A stretch of 64,000 bases of DNA, from the NCBI GenBank assembly GCA_964360965.1, contig CAYHYM010000003.1, positions 29 through 64,028 on the forward strand. Direction: 5' to 3'. Under the pieces are notes generated by a model. The model did no database searches. It worked only from the letters and a program-made list of their open reading frames with translations, and was not told where the DNA came from. This document shows positions 33,403 through 53,624 of this stretch, one piece after another. Numbering within the stretch: position 1 is the first letter of the stretch; each line of letters begins with the position of its first letter. This stretch comes from an uncultured Gammaproteobacteria bacterium. GTDB lineage: Bacteria; Patescibacteriota; Microgenomatia; Daviesbacterales; UBA10151. A program made the position numbers and the translations under genes.

Positions 33403-33409
33403 ACTCTAG

Positions 33410-33480
33410 CTGCGGAGCAGGGATTCGAACCCCAATACCGACATTCAGAGTGTCGTGTCCTACCATTAGACGACTCCGCA
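33410..33480 (-). tRNA. tRNA-Gln (anticodon CUG), no encoded 3' CCA
   Basis: Minus-strand read UGCGGAGUCGUCUAAUGGUAGGACACGACACUCUGAAUGUCGGUAUUGGGGUUCGAAUCCCUGCUCCGCAG. 7-bp acceptor stem (U1:A72 as in E. coli tRNA-Gln), D-arm GUCUAAUGGUAGGAC, anticodon loop CUCUGAA, T-loop UUCGAAU. The 3' end is followed by TAG, not CCA. Confidence 0.85.
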
Positions 33481-36805: not shown

Positions 36806-38160
36806 TTAGTTAATCTAACATCCACTCTTTCCATATCTCTGGGAAAAAGCGAAGCTTGCCTGATATTAGAAAGGTTTAAGACGTGCATGGTAATTCTTTC
36901 TAAGCCGAAAGAGAAACCTCCTTCTGACGGCATGCCAAATTTAAAAGCCATCAAATACATCTCAAAATCTTTAGGATCCATCCCATGTGCTTTAATTGAT
37001 TCCACTAATTGTTTATAGTCATTAATTCTTTGAGAACCACTCATTATTTCAACCCCTCTAAATAGAAGGTCATAGCTTAAGGAATAATCCGGATCTTTTG
37101 GATCAGGTTTGGTATAAAAAGGTTTTGATTGGGTTGGAAAATGAGTAATGGTCACAAAATCGCAGTGATGTTTTTCTTTTGCCCATTTGCAGATATCGAT
37201 CTCATCCTGCGGAGTTAAATCTTTTTCTTTCCTGTTATCCCTTCCAAACTCTTTTAATATAACTTCCTGGGCTTCCCTAAGTGTCAATCTCGGAATATCT
37301 CCGAAAGCTATCTGTTCCATTCCAAGTTCTTTTAAAATATCACCACATCCATTTTCAGTTTGCTTTAATGTCTCCACTGCAACTTTTTCTAAAAGATCCA
37401 AAAGATCTTCAAACTCCACAAAACCTATCTCACAATCCATTTGAGTAATTTCCGATAAATGTCTTGTTGTCACAGAAGGTTCTGCTCTATATGCTTTTGT
37501 GATTGTAAAAACTCTTTCAAGGGATGGAACCAACATTTGTTTGTAAAGTTGCGGGCTTTGGGTCAAAAAGGCTTTATGACCATAATAGTCAACTTTAAAC
37601 ACTTGTGCTCCTCCTTCTGTAGATGAGGCGACAATGGTTGGAACAACAATCTCAGTGCAACCAATTTCTTTTGCAGCCTTTCTGAATCCTTCCAAAATAC
37701 TCGCTTGAACTCTAAATATTGCTTTAACTTTTGGATGGCGCAAAGTGAGAGAGCGAAAATCCAAAAGGGTTGGTAGTTGTAAATCCAAATCTTTTCCTCC
37801 CATATCAAACGGTAGCTCTTCTGCTTTTGACAAGATTTCCATGGAATCTGCAGATATTTCTATTTCACCTGTGGGAATATTTTCATTGACCAGATTTTCT
37901 GGCCGCTTGTTAACTTTTCCAGTTATACAAACTACATCTTGGGAGTGTAGGCTACCCACCTCGAAGGTGGGCTCTGACTCCTTCGAGGTAGATTTTGTCT
38001 GTTGTGATACTACCACTTGTATTAATCCACTTCTATCTAAGATATCCAAAAATAAAATCTTGCCATGGTCACGGCGGGTTTGCACCCACCCACAAACCTC
38101 AACAGATTCCCCAACTTTTTTACTACAATCTAGAATGAGAGTACGTTCCATAAATGTCAT
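36802..38160 (-). CDS. aspS: Aspartyl-tRNA synthetase, archaeal/eukaryotic type (class IIb)
   Basis: 452 aa. N-terminal OB fold, class II motifs, motif 3 GGFSFGLERITMHVL. Carries a Family-A in-frame module at 37955..37989. Confidence 0.85.
   Translation of the reverse strand: MTFMERTLILDCSKKVGESVEVCGWVQTRRDHGKILFLDILDRSGLIQVVVSQQTKSTSKESEPTFEVGSLHSQDVVCITGKVNKRPENLVNENIPTGEIEISADSMEILSKAEELPFDMGGKDLDLQLPTLLDFRSLTLRHPKVKAIFRVQASILEGFRKAAKEIGCTEIVVPTIVASSTEGGAQVFKVDYYGHKAFLTQSPQLYKQMLVPSLERVFTITKAYRAEPSVTTRHLSEITQMDCEIGFVEFEDLLDLLEKVAVETLKQTENGCGDILKELGMEQIAFGDIPRLTLREAQEVILKEFGRDNRKEKDLTPQDEIDICKWAKEKHHCDFVTITHFPTQSKPFYTKPDPKDPDYSLSYDLLFRGVEIMSGSQRINDYKQLVESIKAHGMDPKDFEMYLMAFKFGMPSEGGFSFGLERITMHVLNLSNIRQASLFPRDMERVDVRLTK
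37955..37989. repeat. Family-A palindromic module in-frame in the aspS anticodon-binding domain
   Basis: CCCACCT-CGA-AGGTGGG plus outer arms ACCTCGAAGG/CCTTCGAGGT. Encodes STSKESEPTFEVGS. Confidence 0.6.
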
Positions 38161-38182: not shown

Positions 38183-38206
38183 TAGCATCATAACAACAGA
38201 GGTTGA

Positions 38207-38238
38207 CTCTTGACAAGATGGCAAGCCAATGCTAATAT
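38207..38238 (+). promoter_or_regulatory. Sigma70-like promoter TTGACA-17-TAATAT
   Basis: TTGACA 38208..38213, spacer 17 nt, TAATAT 38231..38236. Predicted TSS ~38244, only ~5 nt before the ATG of the small peptide ORF. Confidence 0.5.
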
Positions 38239-38248
38239 ACTACAAGAT

Positions 38249-38377
38249 ATGTCAAAAGTTGAAGTTATAGATTTGAAAAGATTTGTCCTGCCGCAGGCAG
38301 TTTCTTTTGAAACAATTTTGCTTGGCCTCCTTTTGGTGCTCATTATGGGCGCCTTTTTGGGAGGTCTTTTTAGGTAA
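38249..38377 (+). CDS. 42-aa single-TM peptide (leaderless or short-leader)
   Basis: MSKVEVIDLKRFVLPQAVSFETILLGLLLVLIMGAFLGGLFR. No SD; it sits immediately after the promoter. Not in the ORF track. Confidence 0.4.
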   Translation: MSKVEVIDLKRFVLPQAVSFETILLGLLLVLIMGAFLGGLFR

Positions 38378-38403
38378 ATAACACCTAAAAAAGATTGAAA
38401 TTA

Positions 38404-38429
38404 GACCTCCCAAATGGGAGGTTTTTTTA
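38404..38429 (+). terminator. Intrinsic terminator (ACCTCCC-AAAT-GGGAGGT then T7)
   Basis: 7-bp GC-rich stem, 4-nt loop, seven consecutive T. It lies between the small peptide ORF and the SD of the next ORF, an attenuator-like arrangement. Confidence 0.6.
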
Positions 38430-38451
38430 TGGATGAAAGGAGGTGGACATT

Positions 38452-38706
38452 ATGAATGAACGTGATATAGCTGAAGGACAAGCAACTCGTGAATGGTATT
38501 TTAACAGATTTGGAGTTGATGAAACACAACCAGCTCAATCAACTAAGACTAGTATACCGCCAACTACAGGAACGGTAAAGGCAGAACCAGATGAAATGCC
38601 TAAGCCAGAAAAGCCTAGGGTGGAAACTGTATATCGAGGAGATCAACCGGTTACAGTATTTAATCCAGGTATAGATTTTACAAAAGGCGGGAGTATACAT
38701 TTCTAA
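38452..38706 (+). CDS. Hypothetical 84-aa soluble protein
   Basis: ATG preceded by a strong SD AAGGAGGTG. MNERDIAEGQATREWYFNRFGVDETQPAQS..., Pro/Thr-rich middle. Confidence 0.5.
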   Translation: MNERDIAEGQATREWYFNRFGVDETQPAQSTKTSIPPTTGTVKAEPDEMPKPEKPRVETVYRGDQPVTVFNPGIDFTKGGSIHF

Positions 38707-38813: not shown

Positions 38814-40394
38814 TCAAACAATGCGAATATCTTTAACTTTAAGTTGTAATTTTTCATTACCATTGTAGCTATCTATTTCTGGTGTATAGGCTAAATCAAT
38901 GGACTGCCCATTAGTTAAGGTATTTGCCAGATCACCCATGCCAAAAGCTATGGCATCTAGACCATCTGCCTTAAATTTTAAATGCTTCCCTTCCCCCACA
39001 GTCCTAATATCTGAAATTTGAACAGCATCTGTGGTAAAAATGGGTCTGGGGTTACCAAAACCAAATGGCTCAAATTTTTTTAAATCATCCACCAAATCTT
39101 TGGTTAATTTATTAACCTTTATTTCCGCCTCAATTTCCAAAACCTGTTCCACTTCATCAGGTAAAGTTATCACCAGTTCCTCTAATCTTTTTTTGAACCC
39201 ATCAATATTTTTAGTTAAAATAGAAAATCCGGCAGCACGGGGATGTCCTCCCACATCTACTAAAATATCAGCATGTTTCCTGATCACCTCCACAATATTA
39301 ATCCCGTTAATTGATCTTGCAGATCCTTTGGATATCTCTTTCCCTAATGATATGGCAATGGTTGGACGATAATATTCTTGAGTAATCCTTCCGGCAATCA
39401 AACCAATAATGCCGGGCGACCAATCCTTACTGCTTAATACATGAATATTATTTTGGGTATCAATTAGTAATTTTGCTTGCTCTACAGCATCTATAGTCAT
39501 TTTTTGCCTCTCAGTGTTTGTCTTAGATAGTAGTTTTGCCAACCCCTTGGCTTTTGCTGGGTCTTTAGTGCATAAAAGTCTTAAAGAATCTATGGCATGC
39601 TCTAACCTTCCCATGGCATTTAATCTTGGACCCAAAATATGACCAATTTCATACGAAGAAATCTCATCTAAACTTATTCCAGATTCGTTAATAAGAGCAA
39701 GCAGTCCAATATTTGTGGTTCTTTGTAAAACCTTTAAACCTTCAGAAACAAAAGCTCTATTTAATCCAACCAGCGGCATTAAATCACAAACTGTTGCCAT
39801 TGCCACAAATTGTAATAATTCATGAGCCAATTCCTTTTTAATAACTTCTCTTACCAGACACCAGGCTACCGCTGCCCCACACATCTTGGTTGAATAAACA
39901 ATTGCATATGCATCAGGTTTCTTCTCCAAAGGGATATGATGATCTGTAATAATCAAATCAAGTCCTATTTCTTTGGCAAACTTTGCTTGAGGTATGGCAA
40001 CTATGCCGTTGTCTACAGTAATCACAACAGTTGCTCCAGAATCCCTAGCAAATTCCAAACCCAATTTTGATAACCCGTATCCTTCTTTTTCTCTATGAGG
40101 AATATAGGGTAAGGCTTTTGCCCCCATAGATGTCAGGGCTTTATAAAGTATTGCGCATCCACAGATCCCGTCCACATCATAATCTCCGTAAACTATTATT
40201 AATTCATTATTTTTTATAGCTTTATTAATTCTTGCCTGCGCTTTCCCAATACCTGAAATATTTAAATCTTTTTCATAGTCTGAAATTTTGGGGTTAAAAA
40301 ATTGTTCTTTTTCTTTAGGAGTTTTTATTCCACGGTTGATTAGCAACTGCTCAGTAATATCATCAGACCTTTTTGGTAATATCTTCCACTTCAT
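38814..40394 (-). CDS. recJ: Single-stranded-DNA-specific exonuclease RecJ
   Basis: 526 aa. DHH motifs IVYGDYDVDGICG and ITDHH, DHHA1 GGHPRAAGF. Confidence 0.9.
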   Translation of the reverse strand: MKWKILPKRSDDITEQLLINRGIKTPKEKEQFFNPKISDYEKDLNISGIGKAQARINKAIKNNELIIVYGDYDVDGICGCAILYKALTSMGAKALPYIPHREKEGYGLSKLGLEFARDSGATVVITVDNGIVAIPQAKFAKEIGLDLIITDHHIPLEKKPDAYAIVYSTKMCGAAVAWCLVREVIKKELAHELLQFVAMATVCDLMPLVGLNRAFVSEGLKVLQRTTNIGLLALINESGISLDEISSYEIGHILGPRLNAMGRLEHAIDSLRLLCTKDPAKAKGLAKLLSKTNTERQKMTIDAVEQAKLLIDTQNNIHVLSSKDWSPGIIGLIAGRITQEYYRPTIAISLGKEISKGSARSINGINIVEVIRKHADILVDVGGHPRAAGFSILTKNIDGFKKRLEELVITLPDEVEQVLEIEAEIKVNKLTKDLVDDLKKFEPFGFGNPRPIFTTDAVQISDIRTVGEGKHLKFKADGLDAIAFGMGDLANTLTNGQSIDLAYTPEIDSYNGNEKLQLKVKDIRIV

Positions 40395-50305: not shown

Positions 50306-50587
50306 ATGGCTATCCTTCAAACCAAAAAACAATCTGATTTAGAAAAACGCCTTAAGTTTCTTCGCCAACAAATCTATGGTCGGGAATCAGTAGCTAGTAA
50401 CAAGCAGTATGTAGTAAGTGAAGAAATGACACCAAAAAATACCCATACTACCAACCTACTTACTGATGTAACCTATCTTAAGGGTGATCTTGCCAAAATT
50501 TCTCTTTTAGCAAGTGCAGCCTTGGGCATGCAGATCCTACTATACTTTCTGATGAAAAATCATATTTTAAATTTTATCAAAATTTGA
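50306..50587 (+). CDS. Hypothetical protein with C-terminal TM helix
   Basis: 93 aa, C-terminal ISLLASAALGMQILLYFLM. Confidence 0.4.
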   Translation: MAILQTKKQSDLEKRLKFLRQQIYGRESVASNKQYVVSEEMTPKNTHTTNLLTDVTYLKGDLAKISLLASAALGMQILLYFLMKNHILNFIKI

Positions 50588-50604: not shown

Positions 50605-50742
50605 ATGCAGATGTATTGTGTTAAATGCCGCACCAAAAGAGACGCTGAAGATGTCCAACAGGTCACTATGAAAAATGGCAAAAAAGCCAGCAAGGGTCGT
50701 TGTCCTGTTTGCAGCACTTCAATGTTTAGAATTGGCGGCTAA
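50605..50742 (+). CDS. 45-aa zinc-ribbon mini-protein (CxxC...CxxC)
   Basis: Strong SD GAAGGGAGGTGA 7 nt upstream. MQMYCVKCRTKRDAEDVQQVTMKNGKKASKGRCPVCSTSMFRIGG. Resembles DUF5679-type small Zn-ribbon proteins (recalled from memory, unverified). Not in the ORF track. Confidence 0.55.
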   Translation: MQMYCVKCRTKRDAEDVQQVTMKNGKKASKGRCPVCSTSMFRIGG

Positions 50743-50799
50743 TTACTTGGTGATTTGTTCACCATTTCTAAAAAGTCCTCCAAAATGTTGGGGGATTTT

Positions 50800-52353
50800 T
50801 TAGTGACTTTCATCTCTTGACCTGTATTGAAGGGCTTCGGCAATATGTTCAGTTAAAATACTATCCAATCCATCAAGATCAGCAATGGTGCGTGATAATT
50901 TAAGCACCCTATGATAACCTCTGGCTGATAAATTAATTGATGATATTGCCTGTTTTAAAAGCTCCAACCCTTCTTGAGTAATTTGGCAAAAATTCTTGAT
51001 CTCCGCATTTCCCATTTCCGAATTAGTTAAAATATGGCCGGTTTTAAATCTCCCTCTTTGAATCTGGCGGGCTCTAATTACTCTTTTCCTAATGGCCTTG
51101 GAATCCTCAACAGTCAAATCAGCTGATAATTTATCAACATCAACTGCCGGAATTTCCAGATAAATATCAATTCTATCAAGCAAAGGACCGGAAACTCTAC
51201 GCTGATATTTGGCAATCTGACCAGGAAAACAACTACATTGACGCTTTTTGTCACCCAAAAACCCGCATGGACAGGGATTTTGAGCGGCAAGCAATATAAA
51301 TTGCGCAGGAAATGTTAAAGTTCCGGCAGCGCGTGAGATGGTAATATGATGATCCTCCAGCGGTTGACGCAATGCCTCTAAAACATATCTGGGAAATTCA
51401 GGAAACTCATCCAGAAAAAGTACCCCCCTATGAGCCAAAGATATCTCTCCCGGTCTTGGGGTATTTCCTCCGCCAATAAGACCTATATGAGAAGCGCTGT
51501 GATGAGGTGTTCTAAATGGTCTTTGGGTTATCAAAGATTGCCCGTTGCCTAAATTACCGGATATAGAATAAATTTTGGTTACCTCTATCGCTTCATCAAA
51601 GGTAAGCGGAGGCAGTATTGATGGAAATGATCGGGCAAGCATTGTTTTACCGGCTCCCGGAGGACCCTTTAATAGAACATTATGTCCTCCGGCGGCAGCT
51701 ATCTCCAAAGCTCTTTTGGCGTGCTCCTGTCCTTTAATTTGGGAAAAATCATATCCATAATTTATATCCTCCTCAAACTCAATTTTTTGAGGTTTAACTG
51801 GATTTGTTAATTTTTGACCTAATAAAATTTGAGTTACATCTTTTAAACTATTACATGCCAGTACTTTTACCCCTTTAACTATTGCTGCCTCCTGTCCATT
51901 ATCTTTTGGAACAATCATTGTTTTAAAACCCCTCTGTTTGGAAAGTACTGCCAGCGGCAATACTCCCTTAGTTTTTCTTAAATCACCATCCAAAGACAGC
52001 TCACCAACAACCAGGACTCTATCCAAATCCAATCCGTTATCACTACCATTTGGAACCTGTCCTGATGCCAAAAGCAATCCCAAGGCAATTGGCAAATCAT
52101 ATTGCGGCCCCTCTTTGGGAAGATCTGCGGGAGCAAGATTAACAATTATTTTTCTGGATGGAAAATCACCACCTGAGTTTTTGATGGCAGATCTTACTCT
52201 TTCCTTTGATTCCTCAACTGCCCGATCAGCCAACCCTACTATGGTAAAAGAGGGCAGCCCTTGTGAGGCAATATCAACTTCTACCTCAATTGGTACTCCA
52301 TCAAGACCGACATTGGCACCAGATAAAATTTTAGCAAGCATTGGATTTTGCAA
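50800..52353 (-). CDS. comM: YifB/ComM-family AAA+ ATPase (Mg-chelatase-like)
   Basis: 517 aa. N-terminal Lon-like domain, AAA+ Walker A GPPGAGKTMLA, C-terminal Mg_chelatase_C. Confidence 0.9.
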   Translation of the reverse strand: MQNPMLAKILSGANVGLDGVPIEVEVDIASQGLPSFTIVGLADRAVEESKERVRSAIKNSGGDFPSRKIIVNLAPADLPKEGPQYDLPIALGLLLASGQVPNGSDNGLDLDRVLVVGELSLDGDLRKTKGVLPLAVLSKQRGFKTMIVPKDNGQEAAIVKGVKVLACNSLKDVTQILLGQKLTNPVKPQKIEFEEDINYGYDFSQIKGQEHAKRALEIAAAGGHNVLLKGPPGAGKTMLARSFPSILPPLTFDEAIEVTKIYSISGNLGNGQSLITQRPFRTPHHSASHIGLIGGGNTPRPGEISLAHRGVLFLDEFPEFPRYVLEALRQPLEDHHITISRAAGTLTFPAQFILLAAQNPCPCGFLGDKKRQCSCFPGQIAKYQRRVSGPLLDRIDIYLEIPAVDVDKLSADLTVEDSKAIRKRVIRARQIQRGRFKTGHILTNSEMGNAEIKNFCQITQEGLELLKQAISSINLSARGYHRVLKLSRTIADLDGLDSILTEHIAEALQYRSRDESH

Positions 52354-52375: not shown

Positions 52376-52662
52376 TGCCTAGGAAGAAGGATGATTGCTA
52401 CGTTCAGTTTACATGAACGTAGAGGAAAGTCCAGACAGCAAAGAGCAGGGTGTCCGGCGTAAGACGGAGGTCGTAAGATCCAGTTAGAGCAACAGTGACG
52501 AACCGAGGTAATGCTCGGATGAAACGGGCAATCCTCCCCGCTGCAATCCTAGAATCGGTCAGGTTGCTCGCCTGATGACCGGAGTAAGGAGCATTAGATA
52601 AATGATCATCAATCCTGACTAAATCGGGATGAACAGAATCTGGCTTACTCTCATCCTAGGCA
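52376..52662 (+). ncRNA. rnpB: RNase P RNA (bacterial type, compact)
   Basis: P3 hairpin 52398..52422, then GAGGAAAGTCCAGAC...AGAGCAGGGTG... (P4 5' strand, cf. GAGGAAAGTCCGGGC...CAGGGTGCC). Internal AGAGCAACAGTGACGAA (cf. GTGCAACAGAGAG). 3' ACAGAATCTGGCTTAC (P4 3' strand, cf. ACAGAACCCGGCTTA) then P1 closing TCATCCTAGGCA pairing with TGCCTAGG..ATGA at the 5' end. The 3' end overlaps the stop of the convergent AI-2E gene. Confidence 0.8.
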
Positions 52663-53624
52663 CTTTTTTCTTCTAATACTTCCATCCAAACTACTTGCAA
52701 AACAACCACAATCGGTACCGCCAAAAGTGCTCCCCCAAATCCTAAAAGTCTGGTCCCCACAGCCACAGCCAAAATAATAATTAAGGGATTTAAGCCTACT
52801 GCTCTTTTCATAACTTGCGGCACTATCAGATTATTTTCCAGCTGCTGAATAATAAAATACCAACCGACAACAGCAGCTGTTATAACCGGAGAAATAGTCA
52901 GCGCCAAAATAACTGCCGGAATTGCGGCAATGATCGGTCCAATAACCGGCACCACCTCCATGATTGCAGCAAGTAAAGCCAGAGGTAGCGCATAGGGAAT
53001 ATTTAAAATAATCAGCCCCAAATATACCAGCAATCCAATAATAATACTCAAAAACAACTGGCCCCTTACCCATGCTCCCAGCTTTTCCTCTATTCTGATG
53101 ATAGATTTTCTGATCTGTCCTGATCTTTCTCCAAATAAAGAAGGAGTTTTTTCTTCTAAACTCTCTTTTTCTAAAAGCAGATAGAAGGTTAAAACTAAAA
53201 CAAAAATCACCGTGATAAGATTACTGAATACTTCCAGGGTTATGGAAAAGATATTTTTGGAAAGATTGACCAATTGTGACTGAAAAACCGTGTCGTTAAC
53301 ATCTGACAGGTTAAATTGATCGGCTAGTAAAGGCGGAAGAGCAGAAATTAACCTGTTGCTTTGTTCAATAAGCGGCGGCAATAAAATGGCCAAAATGCCT
53401 GCCACTGCTGCTATTATGAAAATGTATGAAATGATAATTCCCAATGCTTTAGGCAATTTTAACTTAGTAAAAAAATTCACCAGAGGAGAAAGAGCAGACA
53501 TCAAAATTACTGCCACAAATAAAAGGATTAACAGATCTCTTATTAAGTAAAGCACCCAAAGACCCAAAATAAAAATGGTGATAAAAATAATTGTTTTATG
53601 TGAAATATCAATTTTTCTTGGCAT
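52656..53624 (-). CDS. AI-2E family transporter (UPF0118/PerM-like)
   Basis: 322 aa, 8 TM. Conserved LSALSPLV and PVIGPII motifs. Confidence 0.8.
   Translation of the reverse strand: MPRKIDISHKTIIFITIFILGLWVLYLIRDLLILLFVAVILMSALSPLVNFFTKLKLPKALGIIISYIFIIAAVAGILAILLPPLIEQSNRLISALPPLLADQFNLSDVNDTVFQSQLVNLSKNIFSITLEVFSNLITVIFVLVLTFYLLLEKESLEEKTPSLFGERSGQIRKSIIRIEEKLGAWVRGQLFLSIIIGLLVYLGLIILNIPYALPLALLAAIMEVVPVIGPIIAAIPAVILALTISPVITAAVVGWYFIIQQLENNLIVPQVMKRAVGLNPLIIILAVAVGTRLLGFGGALLAVPIVVVLQVVWMEVLEEKSA

Follow-up and report, generated by a model that had tools for sequence, protein, structure and literature searches.

The window analysed here is a 64,000-nt stretch of contig CAYHYM010000003.1 (assembly GCA_964360965.1), and our subject is one short plus-strand element within it, a probable transcription attenuator in which a promoter, a small leader open reading frame (ORF) and an intrinsic terminator precede a second ORF of 84 codons, here called ORF84. 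The sigma-70-type promoter (38210-38238) consists of TTGACA (38210-38215), a 17-nt spacer and TAATAT (38233-38238), with a TG just before the -10 hexamer. The leader-peptide ORF, 42 codons plus TAA (MSKVEVIDLKRFVLPQAVSFETILLGLLLVLIMGAFLGGLFR), occupies 38249-38377, its stop codon lying at 38375-38377. The terminator, AGACCTCCC-AAAT-GGGAGGTTT (38403-38424; 9-bp stem, 4-nt loop), begins 25 nt past that stop and ends in a T7 run (38422-38428); a scan of the whole window for perfect GC-rich hairpins with a T-run behind them returned only four, two of them in the switch element. ORF84 (38452-38706) is led by a Shine-Dalgarno (SD) sequence, GGAGG at 38439-38443 (SD region 38435-38446, GAAAGGAGGTGG). 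A preliminary description of this DNA had listed these parts, and all are present: the TTGACA-17-TAATAT promoter, the near-leaderless 42-aa ORF (with small corrections to its coordinates), the terminator within 30 nt of it, and the SD-led 84-aa ORF with its ATG at 38452. A promoter scan of the region found no promoter-like site between the terminator and ORF84, so that transcription of ORF84 depends on terminator read-through.

The -10 hexamer lies 10 nt from the leader ATG, and there is no SD; a 5' untranslated region of ~2-5 nt is therefore expected and, judging the start site from the promoter position, the transcript would be leaderless or nearly so. Taken singly, the promoter match is not above chance (6 promoter-like matches in the scanned region vs 6.6 expected). 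Among the 11 related loci (designated here by L numbers) with enough upstream sequence, TTGACA is found upstream of the leader in all 11, the -10 is placed 17-18 nt downstream of it in 10, and the distance from -10 to ATG is 8-14 nt in 8, a conserved spacing which makes leaderless initiation the rule. The exception is L031, where a 30-nt leader with a AAAGGAGA SD replaces the leaderless start; this SD-led variant suggests that translation of the leader is the property being kept.

The leader ORF is uncalled as a gene in every source assembly, and the exact peptide is missing from the protein collection. Its homologs form six protein clusters (33-45 aa), with uncalled copies in other contigs. 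The earlier statement that neither ORF has recognisable homologs has to be withdrawn, since both have them in metagenomes and metagenome-assembled genomes (MAGs); none belongs to a named family. The preliminary description had also proposed a search for synteny in related genomes, and there the leader ORF is open and in frame across 13 contigs of Daviesbacteria, members of the Candidate Phyla Radiation (CPR), alongside the terminator, with indels of 3, 6 or 24 nt. At the N-terminus of the peptide, MSKxxxIDLKR is maintained as protein sequence, the changes among its Ser codons being synonymous. A 19-residue hydrophobic stretch (residues 23-41 of 42) follows, and codons 22-33 (TILLGLLLVLIM, 38312-38347), 6 of whose 12 codons are Leu, form what composition and ribosome-mask folding (below) mark as the regulatory codon run. 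Two codons of the leader are CTC, a rare Leu codon (3% of Leu codons here). Near the end of the ORF, a 1-nt indel in L007 and L016 turns the peptide terminus GGLFR into GRSF, and the stop codon still falls inside the same hairpin (P2, below); it is thus the position of the stop, not the C-terminal sequence, that is conserved.

Two further observations concern the leader. An in-frame 24-nt insertion (38285-38308, encoding VLPQAVSF) is unique to the window lineage, all other homologs being without it; it folds into a small hairpin, CTGCCGCAGGCAG, that the scan flagged as terminator-like. Leader codons 8-11 (GAUUUGAAAAGA; GAUUUAAAAAGA in most homologs; 38269-38283) and the 5' arm of P2 (UCUUUUUAG, 38365-38375) have complementary sequences; a further alternative pairing could arise here, which might explain the strong conservation of the DLKR codons.

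The RNA from the middle of the leader to the T-run can be divided into four pairing segments and two hairpins. Segment 1 (GGCCTCC, 38324-38330) pairs with segment 2 as an anti-antiterminator, according to RNAalifold. Hairpin P1 (GGTGCTC-ATTAT-GGGCGCC, 38335-38353) lies within the leader ORF, as does segment 2 (GGGAGGTCT, 38359-38367), the antiterminator 5' arm, which encodes ...LGGL.... Hairpin P2 (TTTTTAGGT-AAATAAC-ACCTAAAAA, 38367-38391) holds the leader stop codon and stacks on the 2:3 helix. Segment 3 (AGACCTCCC, 38403-38411) can pair either with segment 2, as antiterminator, or with segment 4 (GGGAGGT and the T7 run, 38416-38428), as terminator. The preliminary description correctly noted that the terminator stem is itself an SD/anti-SD pair: of 26 related elements, most carry a start codon 7 nt past the first T of the T-run, a fixed position which identifies the terminator 3' arm (GGGAGG) as the SD of that start. 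This start is that of the main ORF in L016, L025 and L012 (cimA). The corresponding start in the window begins a mini-ORF of 8 codons (MDERRWTL, 38429-38455), and the TGA of this mini-ORF overlaps the ATG of ORF84 (ATGA), an arrangement found also in L001, L007, L008 and L010 and one that suggests translational coupling to ORF84. Since the terminator arm doubles as an SD, the switch probably acts on translation as well as on transcription.

A covariance model was built from 7 copies, and its alignment replaced that of MAFFT, which had mis-registered segment 1 and P1. Searched with this model, Daviesbacteria contigs yield 13-14 copies, with E from 1e-10 to 1e-25 and a single copy in the window, and RNAalifold independently predicts 1:2, P2 and 3:4. 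Over 13 copies the terminator-state structure (1:2 + P1 + P2 + 3:4) has 95.2% of cells paired and includes 9 pairs with two-sided changes, a score reached by 0 of 500 shuffles. The two-sided changes fall in all 5 modelled pairs of P1, in 3 of 8 in P2 and in one pair of the terminator; helix 3:4 is 99% paired in the 13 copies, that one pair being compensatory, and helix 1:2 is 93% paired in 13 sequences. The mutually exclusive 2:3 antiterminator, a 9-bp helix that stacks on P2, can form in 13/13 copies, with 96.6% paired; its changes comprise one U:A to C:G compensatory pair (L014, L026) and three U:G cases.

Such strong covariation of P1 and P2, although they lie in or beside coding sequence, could be taken to indicate a ligand-, protein- or tRNA-binding riboregulator (a riboswitch, T-box or TRAP-like device) in which the ORF is incidental. 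We regard this as extremely improbable. No Rfam family was found in the switch region at gathering threshold, and a permissive scan gave Phe_leader (RF01859), a family that is a leader-peptide attenuator in its own right, as best match, at 28.8 bits vs a cutoff of 55 (E = 0.083), with RNAI also below threshold. Loops and junctions are not conserved. Every copy keeps the ORF and its start, and also the place of the stop with respect to segment 2, all indels being in frame, and the SD-led variant in L031 again points to translation. A T-box specifically was discarded as a candidate for lack of an Rfam match and of specifier or T-box motifs. A miniature inverted-repeat transposable element, or another repeat, was also considered and dismissed: the element is single-copy in the window, always stands 5' of an ORF and comes with a promoter.

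Switching was examined in silico with a ribosome mimic in which 28 nt, from -12 to +15 nt around the P site, were forced unpaired. The free RNA (38245-38432) folds to the terminator state at -62.6 kcal/mol, i.e. with no ribosome 1:2 and 3:4 are predicted. In the window leader, masks at Leu24-Leu31 give 2:3 + P2 with the terminator absent, and the 3:4 terminator forms under masks placed at Leu37, Leu40 or the stop codon. When the folds are ended just past segment 3, mimicking the moment of decision, all 12 homologs form the antiterminator over a window of ~6-17 codons and leave segment 3 free over the last 8-10 codons. This antitermination window coincides with the L/V/I run in 12/12 homologs, where its composition is 44% L, 15% V and 13% I (72% L+V+I), against 11.1% Leu, 7.1% Val and 8.6% Ile in the window proteome. 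The modelled stall and stop geometry is that of the trp, leu and ilv attenuators.

Within the Daviesbacteria contigs the same scaffold recurs with other codon runs. Alongside the 13 Leu-type copies, about 14 Ile and aromatic paralogs were collected. Sister attenuators with Ile-rich or aromatic leaders lie at L012 6960-7121 (minus strand), L032 1410-1545, L033 1730-1890 and L017 4640-4790, and further ones at L014 6249-6400 (minus strand), L025 3440-3590 and L031 160-250 and 1069-1160. Their leaders carry IIIxIII or aromatic runs (WYFYFYFAF, WFSFTYFYF), and most are served by a TTGACA promoter of their own and start leaderless. Ile-rich leaders (MSKQRAQIIIEIIIASPKGGLLR, MHTKAEIIIGIIITSKKGGCLA, MQMYSSDIIEIIITSRKGGCS) stand directly upstream of a citramalate synthase gene (TIGR00977 is the best NCBIfam match at 429-460 bits vs a cutoff of 450, leuA models reaching at most 258 bits); this enzyme opens the citramalate pathway of isoleucine synthesis. 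Downstream of the aromatic leader MKKHSNWFSFTYFYFRKEEAS lie genes for DAHP synthase, a fused prephenate dehydrogenase/dehydratase and chorismate mutase, and a Phe-rich subtype (MQNLRRYFNFFFTFA in L032) is represented in L033 by an element upstream of prephenate dehydratase. Masked folds of the paralogs flip from antiterminator to terminator immediately past the Ile or aromatic run. This agreement between leader composition and downstream pathway argues that the scaffold serves as an amino-acid-specific attenuator.

The sister leaders also bear on the proposal, made in the preliminary description, that the 42-aa product is a small membrane peptide or type-I toxin with its own terminator, ORF84 being a partner expressed by leaky read-through. 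A hydrophobic stretch of 19 residues and an N-terminus conserved at the protein level would suit such a gene, and leader peptides with trans functions, e.g. peTrpL, do exist. The stretch coincides, however, with the stall window and its 72% L+V+I, and in the paralogs the corresponding IIIxIII or WYFYFYF runs are broken by charged residues and cannot be transmembrane helices, so that the "transmembrane helix" of the window is best read as regulatory codons. The C-terminal frame shifts (GGLFR vs GRSF) and an Asp in mid-stretch in L033 also speak against a conserved transmembrane helix. No convincing antisense promoter or terminator was found, the sole promoter candidate being a 9/12 match on the minus strand (38579-38551) with no minus-strand terminator after it; the only Pfam match of the peptide, TcpE, is insignificant (E = 0.1). 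With the stretch made up of stall codons, no antisense RNA gene evident and the frame shifting, we judge a toxin or membrane-peptide gene very unlikely. A separate candidate, a force-sensing arrest peptide of the SecM or MifM kind, was rejected on the length of the ribosome exit tunnel: the hydrophobic part, residues 23-41 of 42, would not yet have left the tunnel by the time of termination.

The downstream ORFs supply a further line of evidence. Cargo ORFs were taken from L013-L016, L025, L026, L031-L033 and the window (38452-38706). ORF84 has no Leu among its 84 residues against a background of ~11% (binomial p = 5e-5), and members of its family have 0-2. Taken together, the 14 cargo ORFs behind Leu leaders contain 3.2% Leu (35/1077) vs 11.1% (p = 2e-21); the 5 behind aromatic leaders contain 4.4% F+Y+W vs 9.05% (p = 6e-5), and the 2 behind Ile leaders 2.9% Ile vs 8.6% (p = 2.5e-3). 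Residues other than the cognate one are near normal: Ile is 7.7% in the Leu-type cargo, whose Leu depletion relative to the other cargo groups is significant (Fisher p = 4e-6). This reciprocal depletion disposes of the trivial alternative, a shortage of Leu in all small hydrophilic ORFs, and it is as expected for proteins made while the cognate tRNA is uncharged. A membrane-peptide gene would leave it unexplained.

A leader that reports translation status without amino-acid specificity (70S availability, general stalling or an antibiotic, in the manner of erm and cat) would be in keeping with several features of the element, namely the leaderless start, the prediction of 1:2 + 3:4 without a ribosome, segments that are all SD or anti-SD and could also bind 30S subunits, and cargo with no known biosynthetic role. 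What it does not account for is the existence of three leader classes whose distinct runs match the downstream pathway genes, nor the depletion of the cargo specifically in the cognate residue; and no resistance gene lies downstream. On balance we think a general sensor of this kind unlikely.

We conclude that the element is most likely a ribosome-mediated leader-peptide transcription attenuator whose signal is charged tRNA-Leu, Val and Ile codons also contributing to some extent. This bears out the other suggestion of the preliminary description, on the strength of the alternative pairings, the mask folds, the matching Ile and aromatic paralogs and the cognate-depleted cargo. The locus has an in-frame 5' ORF (its translation being predicted), a cluster of cognate codons, a terminator, an exclusive antiterminator and, in the masked folds, the stall geometry of such a device. 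The direct observations are its anatomy and conservation, the covariation of P1, P2 and the terminator, the switching in silico, the paralogs and the cargo composition.

Under the proposed mechanism, transcription would begin 2-5 nt before the AUG and the leader would be translated off a leaderless mRNA. With plentiful Leu-tRNA, the ribosome would reach the UAA in the P2 loop and cover segment 2 (GGGAGGUCU); segment 3 (AGACCUCCC) would then pair with segment 4 (GGGAGGU + U7), and transcription would terminate after ~180 nt. With scarce Leu-tRNA, the ribosome would stall on codons 22-33 (ILLGLLLVLI), over segment 1 and P1, leaving segment 2 free to pair with segment 3 once this is made and to stack on P2; the 2:3 helix would block the terminator, and the polymerase would enter ORF84. 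Without any ribosome, 1:2 and 3:4 should form and give termination. Antitermination would also expose segment 4, a perfect SD, for the mini-ORF of 8 codons, which ends in overlap with the ORF84 AUG. ORF84, having no Leu codons, would be translatable during Leu starvation.

Several points weigh against this interpretation. (i) Helix 1:2 shows zero two-sided changes, and covariation in 2:3 is weak, its observed score being reached by 63 of 500 shuffles; the switching helices covary weakly because segments 1, 2 and 3 are nearly invariant. Covariation was moreover counted on the model-fitted alignment, which favours structure. (ii) Full-length equilibrium folds keep the terminator at every stall position in 2 of 12 homologs, so that the argument leans on co-transcriptional order. 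(iii) The conserved N-terminus MSKxxxIDLKR is unexplained by an attenuator, and the CCUCC and hairpin sequences in part dictate the Leu-rich codons. (iv) Directly downstream of the Leu-type leaders, 13/13 lack a recognisable gene for Leu or branched-chain amino acid biosynthesis, transport or charging, the cargo being family-less small ORFs; the usual cognate-pathway cargo is thus seen with the Ile (citramalate synthase) and aromatic (DAHP synthase operon) paralogs and not with ORF84. (v) The transcription start, termination in vivo, stalling, the Leu response and the role of ORF84 are inferred, and we count this against the attenuator as well.

ORF84 itself is a real, conserved protein, to judge from its low terminal dN/dS (ratio of nonsynonymous to synonymous substitution rates): against the 67%-identical L001 copy this is 0.16 in the N-terminal third, 0.83 in the linker and 0.10 in the C-terminal third. 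Its homologs were found in metagenomes and MAGs, with more distant ones recovered by exhaustive profile search; a scan of GTDB genomes for the family gave no loci, and one of JGI metagenomes gave only the window's own contig. The family is marked by an N-terminal R..W.F.RFGVDE motif and a C-terminal VxTxYxxxQPxxxFxPGxDFxKGGSI(P/H)F, the ORF84 tail reading GIDFxKGGSI(H/P)F. ORF84 has no Pfam, NCBIfam or PDB-sequence relative, and 20 cargo ORFs put through the same searches gave no meaningful match. An AlphaFold2 model of ORF84 from 6 sequences is weak (mean predicted local distance difference test score 62, predicted template modelling score 0.26); it tentatively lays out a helix at residues 3-20, disorder at 26-50 and a beta-hairpin at 56-71.

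In related strains at least three unrelated C-terminal parts follow the first ~30 residues of ORF84 (MNERDIAEGQAAR[ED]WYFNRFGVDETQ); variant C-terminal parts are found in P0004, P0005 and P0006 (L008 152-430, L009 35-427 and L010 107-550), and P0016 contains the motif W.YNRFGV[DE]E twice. These sequences give the impression of a family of small proteins that is modular and recombines. We put forward more tentatively, as a broader idea that may well prove too ambitious, that Daviesbacteria carry a modular family of leaderless attenuators in which one scaffold has been re-coded for Leu, Ile or aromatic residues and drives fast-evolving small proteins purged of the sensed amino acid, plus a few biosynthetic genes. 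ORF84 would be its Leu-starvation member, with the N-terminal helix (R..W.F.RFGVDE) fused to differing C-terminal modules.

Among known systems, the closest in design are leuL and ilvGMEDA (ilvL) of Escherichia coli and Salmonella, which share a Leu (or Leu/Val/Ile) codon run over segment 1, the four segments, rare Leu codons in the leader and a terminator before the gene. There is no sequence or Rfam relationship to them, and their leaders are SD-led whereas that described here is leaderless; the present element differs further in its extra covarying P1 and P2, its SD/anti-SD stems, its non-biosynthetic cargo and its CPR host. Outside the Proteobacteria, a Leu-rich attenuator peptide controls the ilv-leu operon at ilvD of Staphylococcus aureus, where Leu-specific derepression was proposed with genetic support (PMC5794164); the Leu-rich leader and terminator are alike, while the gene controlled here encodes an 84-aa protein and the case is computational. 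In Deinococcus deserti, transcription of leader peptides starts at or one nucleotide before the start codon, and 14 leaderless attenuator leaders were predicted upstream of genes for aminoacyl-tRNA synthetases or for the biosynthesis of amino acids (PMC4007540). Leaderless leaders are thus common to both, while phylum and sequences differ and those of Deinococcus are tied to known genes.

The type I toxin-antitoxin systems hok/sok, tisB/istR and fst resemble the element in combining a small hydrophobic ORF with a structured mRNA and SD/anti-SD pairings; here, by contrast, there is no antisense RNA gene, the codons are regulatory, the paralogs are non-helical and the terminator precedes a dependent gene. 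At trpL of Sinorhizobium meliloti, the small RNA rnTrpL and the peptide peTrpL reportedly have functions of their own. By analogy, the terminated transcript or leader peptide of the present element might likewise act alone in trans, which could account for the conserved MSKxxxIDLKR.

A full-text literature search combining leader-peptide attenuation with CPR or Patescibacteria found no description, so the classical attenuator mechanism is apparently undescribed in CPR bacteria, and the locus offers a concrete, predicted case of it. Its unusual traits are the SD/anti-SD stems, the terminator arm doubling as an SD, and the small family-less cargo protein. The element, absent from Rfam, could seed a new leader family. 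For the annotation of small ORFs and toxins it matters that a "conserved small membrane peptide" in CPR genomes can be a regulatory codon run. Daviesbacteria are thought to rely on other organisms for amino acids; the small cargo proteins are candidate effectors of amino-acid starvation in such reduced, host-dependent bacteria and, if the interpretation is true, amount to a dedicated small-protein response to starvation for a specific amino acid.

The switch region is flanked by two minus-strand genes, aspS, encoding a class II aspartyl-tRNA synthetase (Pfam tRNA-synt_2 and OB domain), and recJ (38814-40394; DHH, DHHA1 and RecJ_OB domains). Relatives of the RecJ protein at 61-76% identity all come from Candidatus Daviesbacteria MAGs or MAGs of the same clade (CPR, Microgenomates), and contigs identical to the window originate from the 0.1-µm fraction of Hainich groundwater. 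The mechanical ORF of aspS begins at 38160 (MTFMERT...), the L001 homolog at the equivalent of 38151 (MERTLILDC), and the second ATG, at 38151, is therefore probably the true start. A divergent promoter-like site for aspS (TTGTCA, 18 nt, TATGAT; 38187-38216, minus strand) lies outside the switch, and the palindrome TCTTGACAAGA (38207-38217), which holds the leader -35, is common to it and the leader promoter. The terminator was also considered as a bidirectional one serving recJ and rejected, lying 390 nt away with no T-run on the minus strand.

The leader promoter region is similar to that of an aspS-adjacent aromatic leader in L014/L022, and on this likeness the window locus may be a deletion derivative of the larger island between aspS and recJ found there. 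AbiEii-type nucleotidyltransferase toxin genes adjoin the island of ORF84 and attenuators in L006 (486-1163) and L012 (4757-5419), so that the interval between aspS and recJ looks like a variable region. In tblastn, no match within the 64-kb window was obtained with LeuA/CimA-like or IlvB-like proteins from the related loci.

Elsewhere in the window, the only other strong plus-strand intrinsic terminator (AGTCCTCCAAAATGTTGGGGGATTTTTT, 50774-50803) comes after a 93-aa ORF (50306-50587) and then an SD-led ORF of ~45 aa (50605-50742). The latter is Cys-rich and zinc-ribbon-like (MQMYCVKCRT...CPVCSTSMFRIGG). The terminator converges on a minus-strand gene for a 517-aa protein. A bacterial RNase P RNA of class A lies at 52379-52663 on the plus strand (125 bits), apparently short at 285 nt vs the 367-position model, and the only tRNA gene in the 64 kb is tRNA-Gln(CTG), at 33409-33480 on the minus strand.

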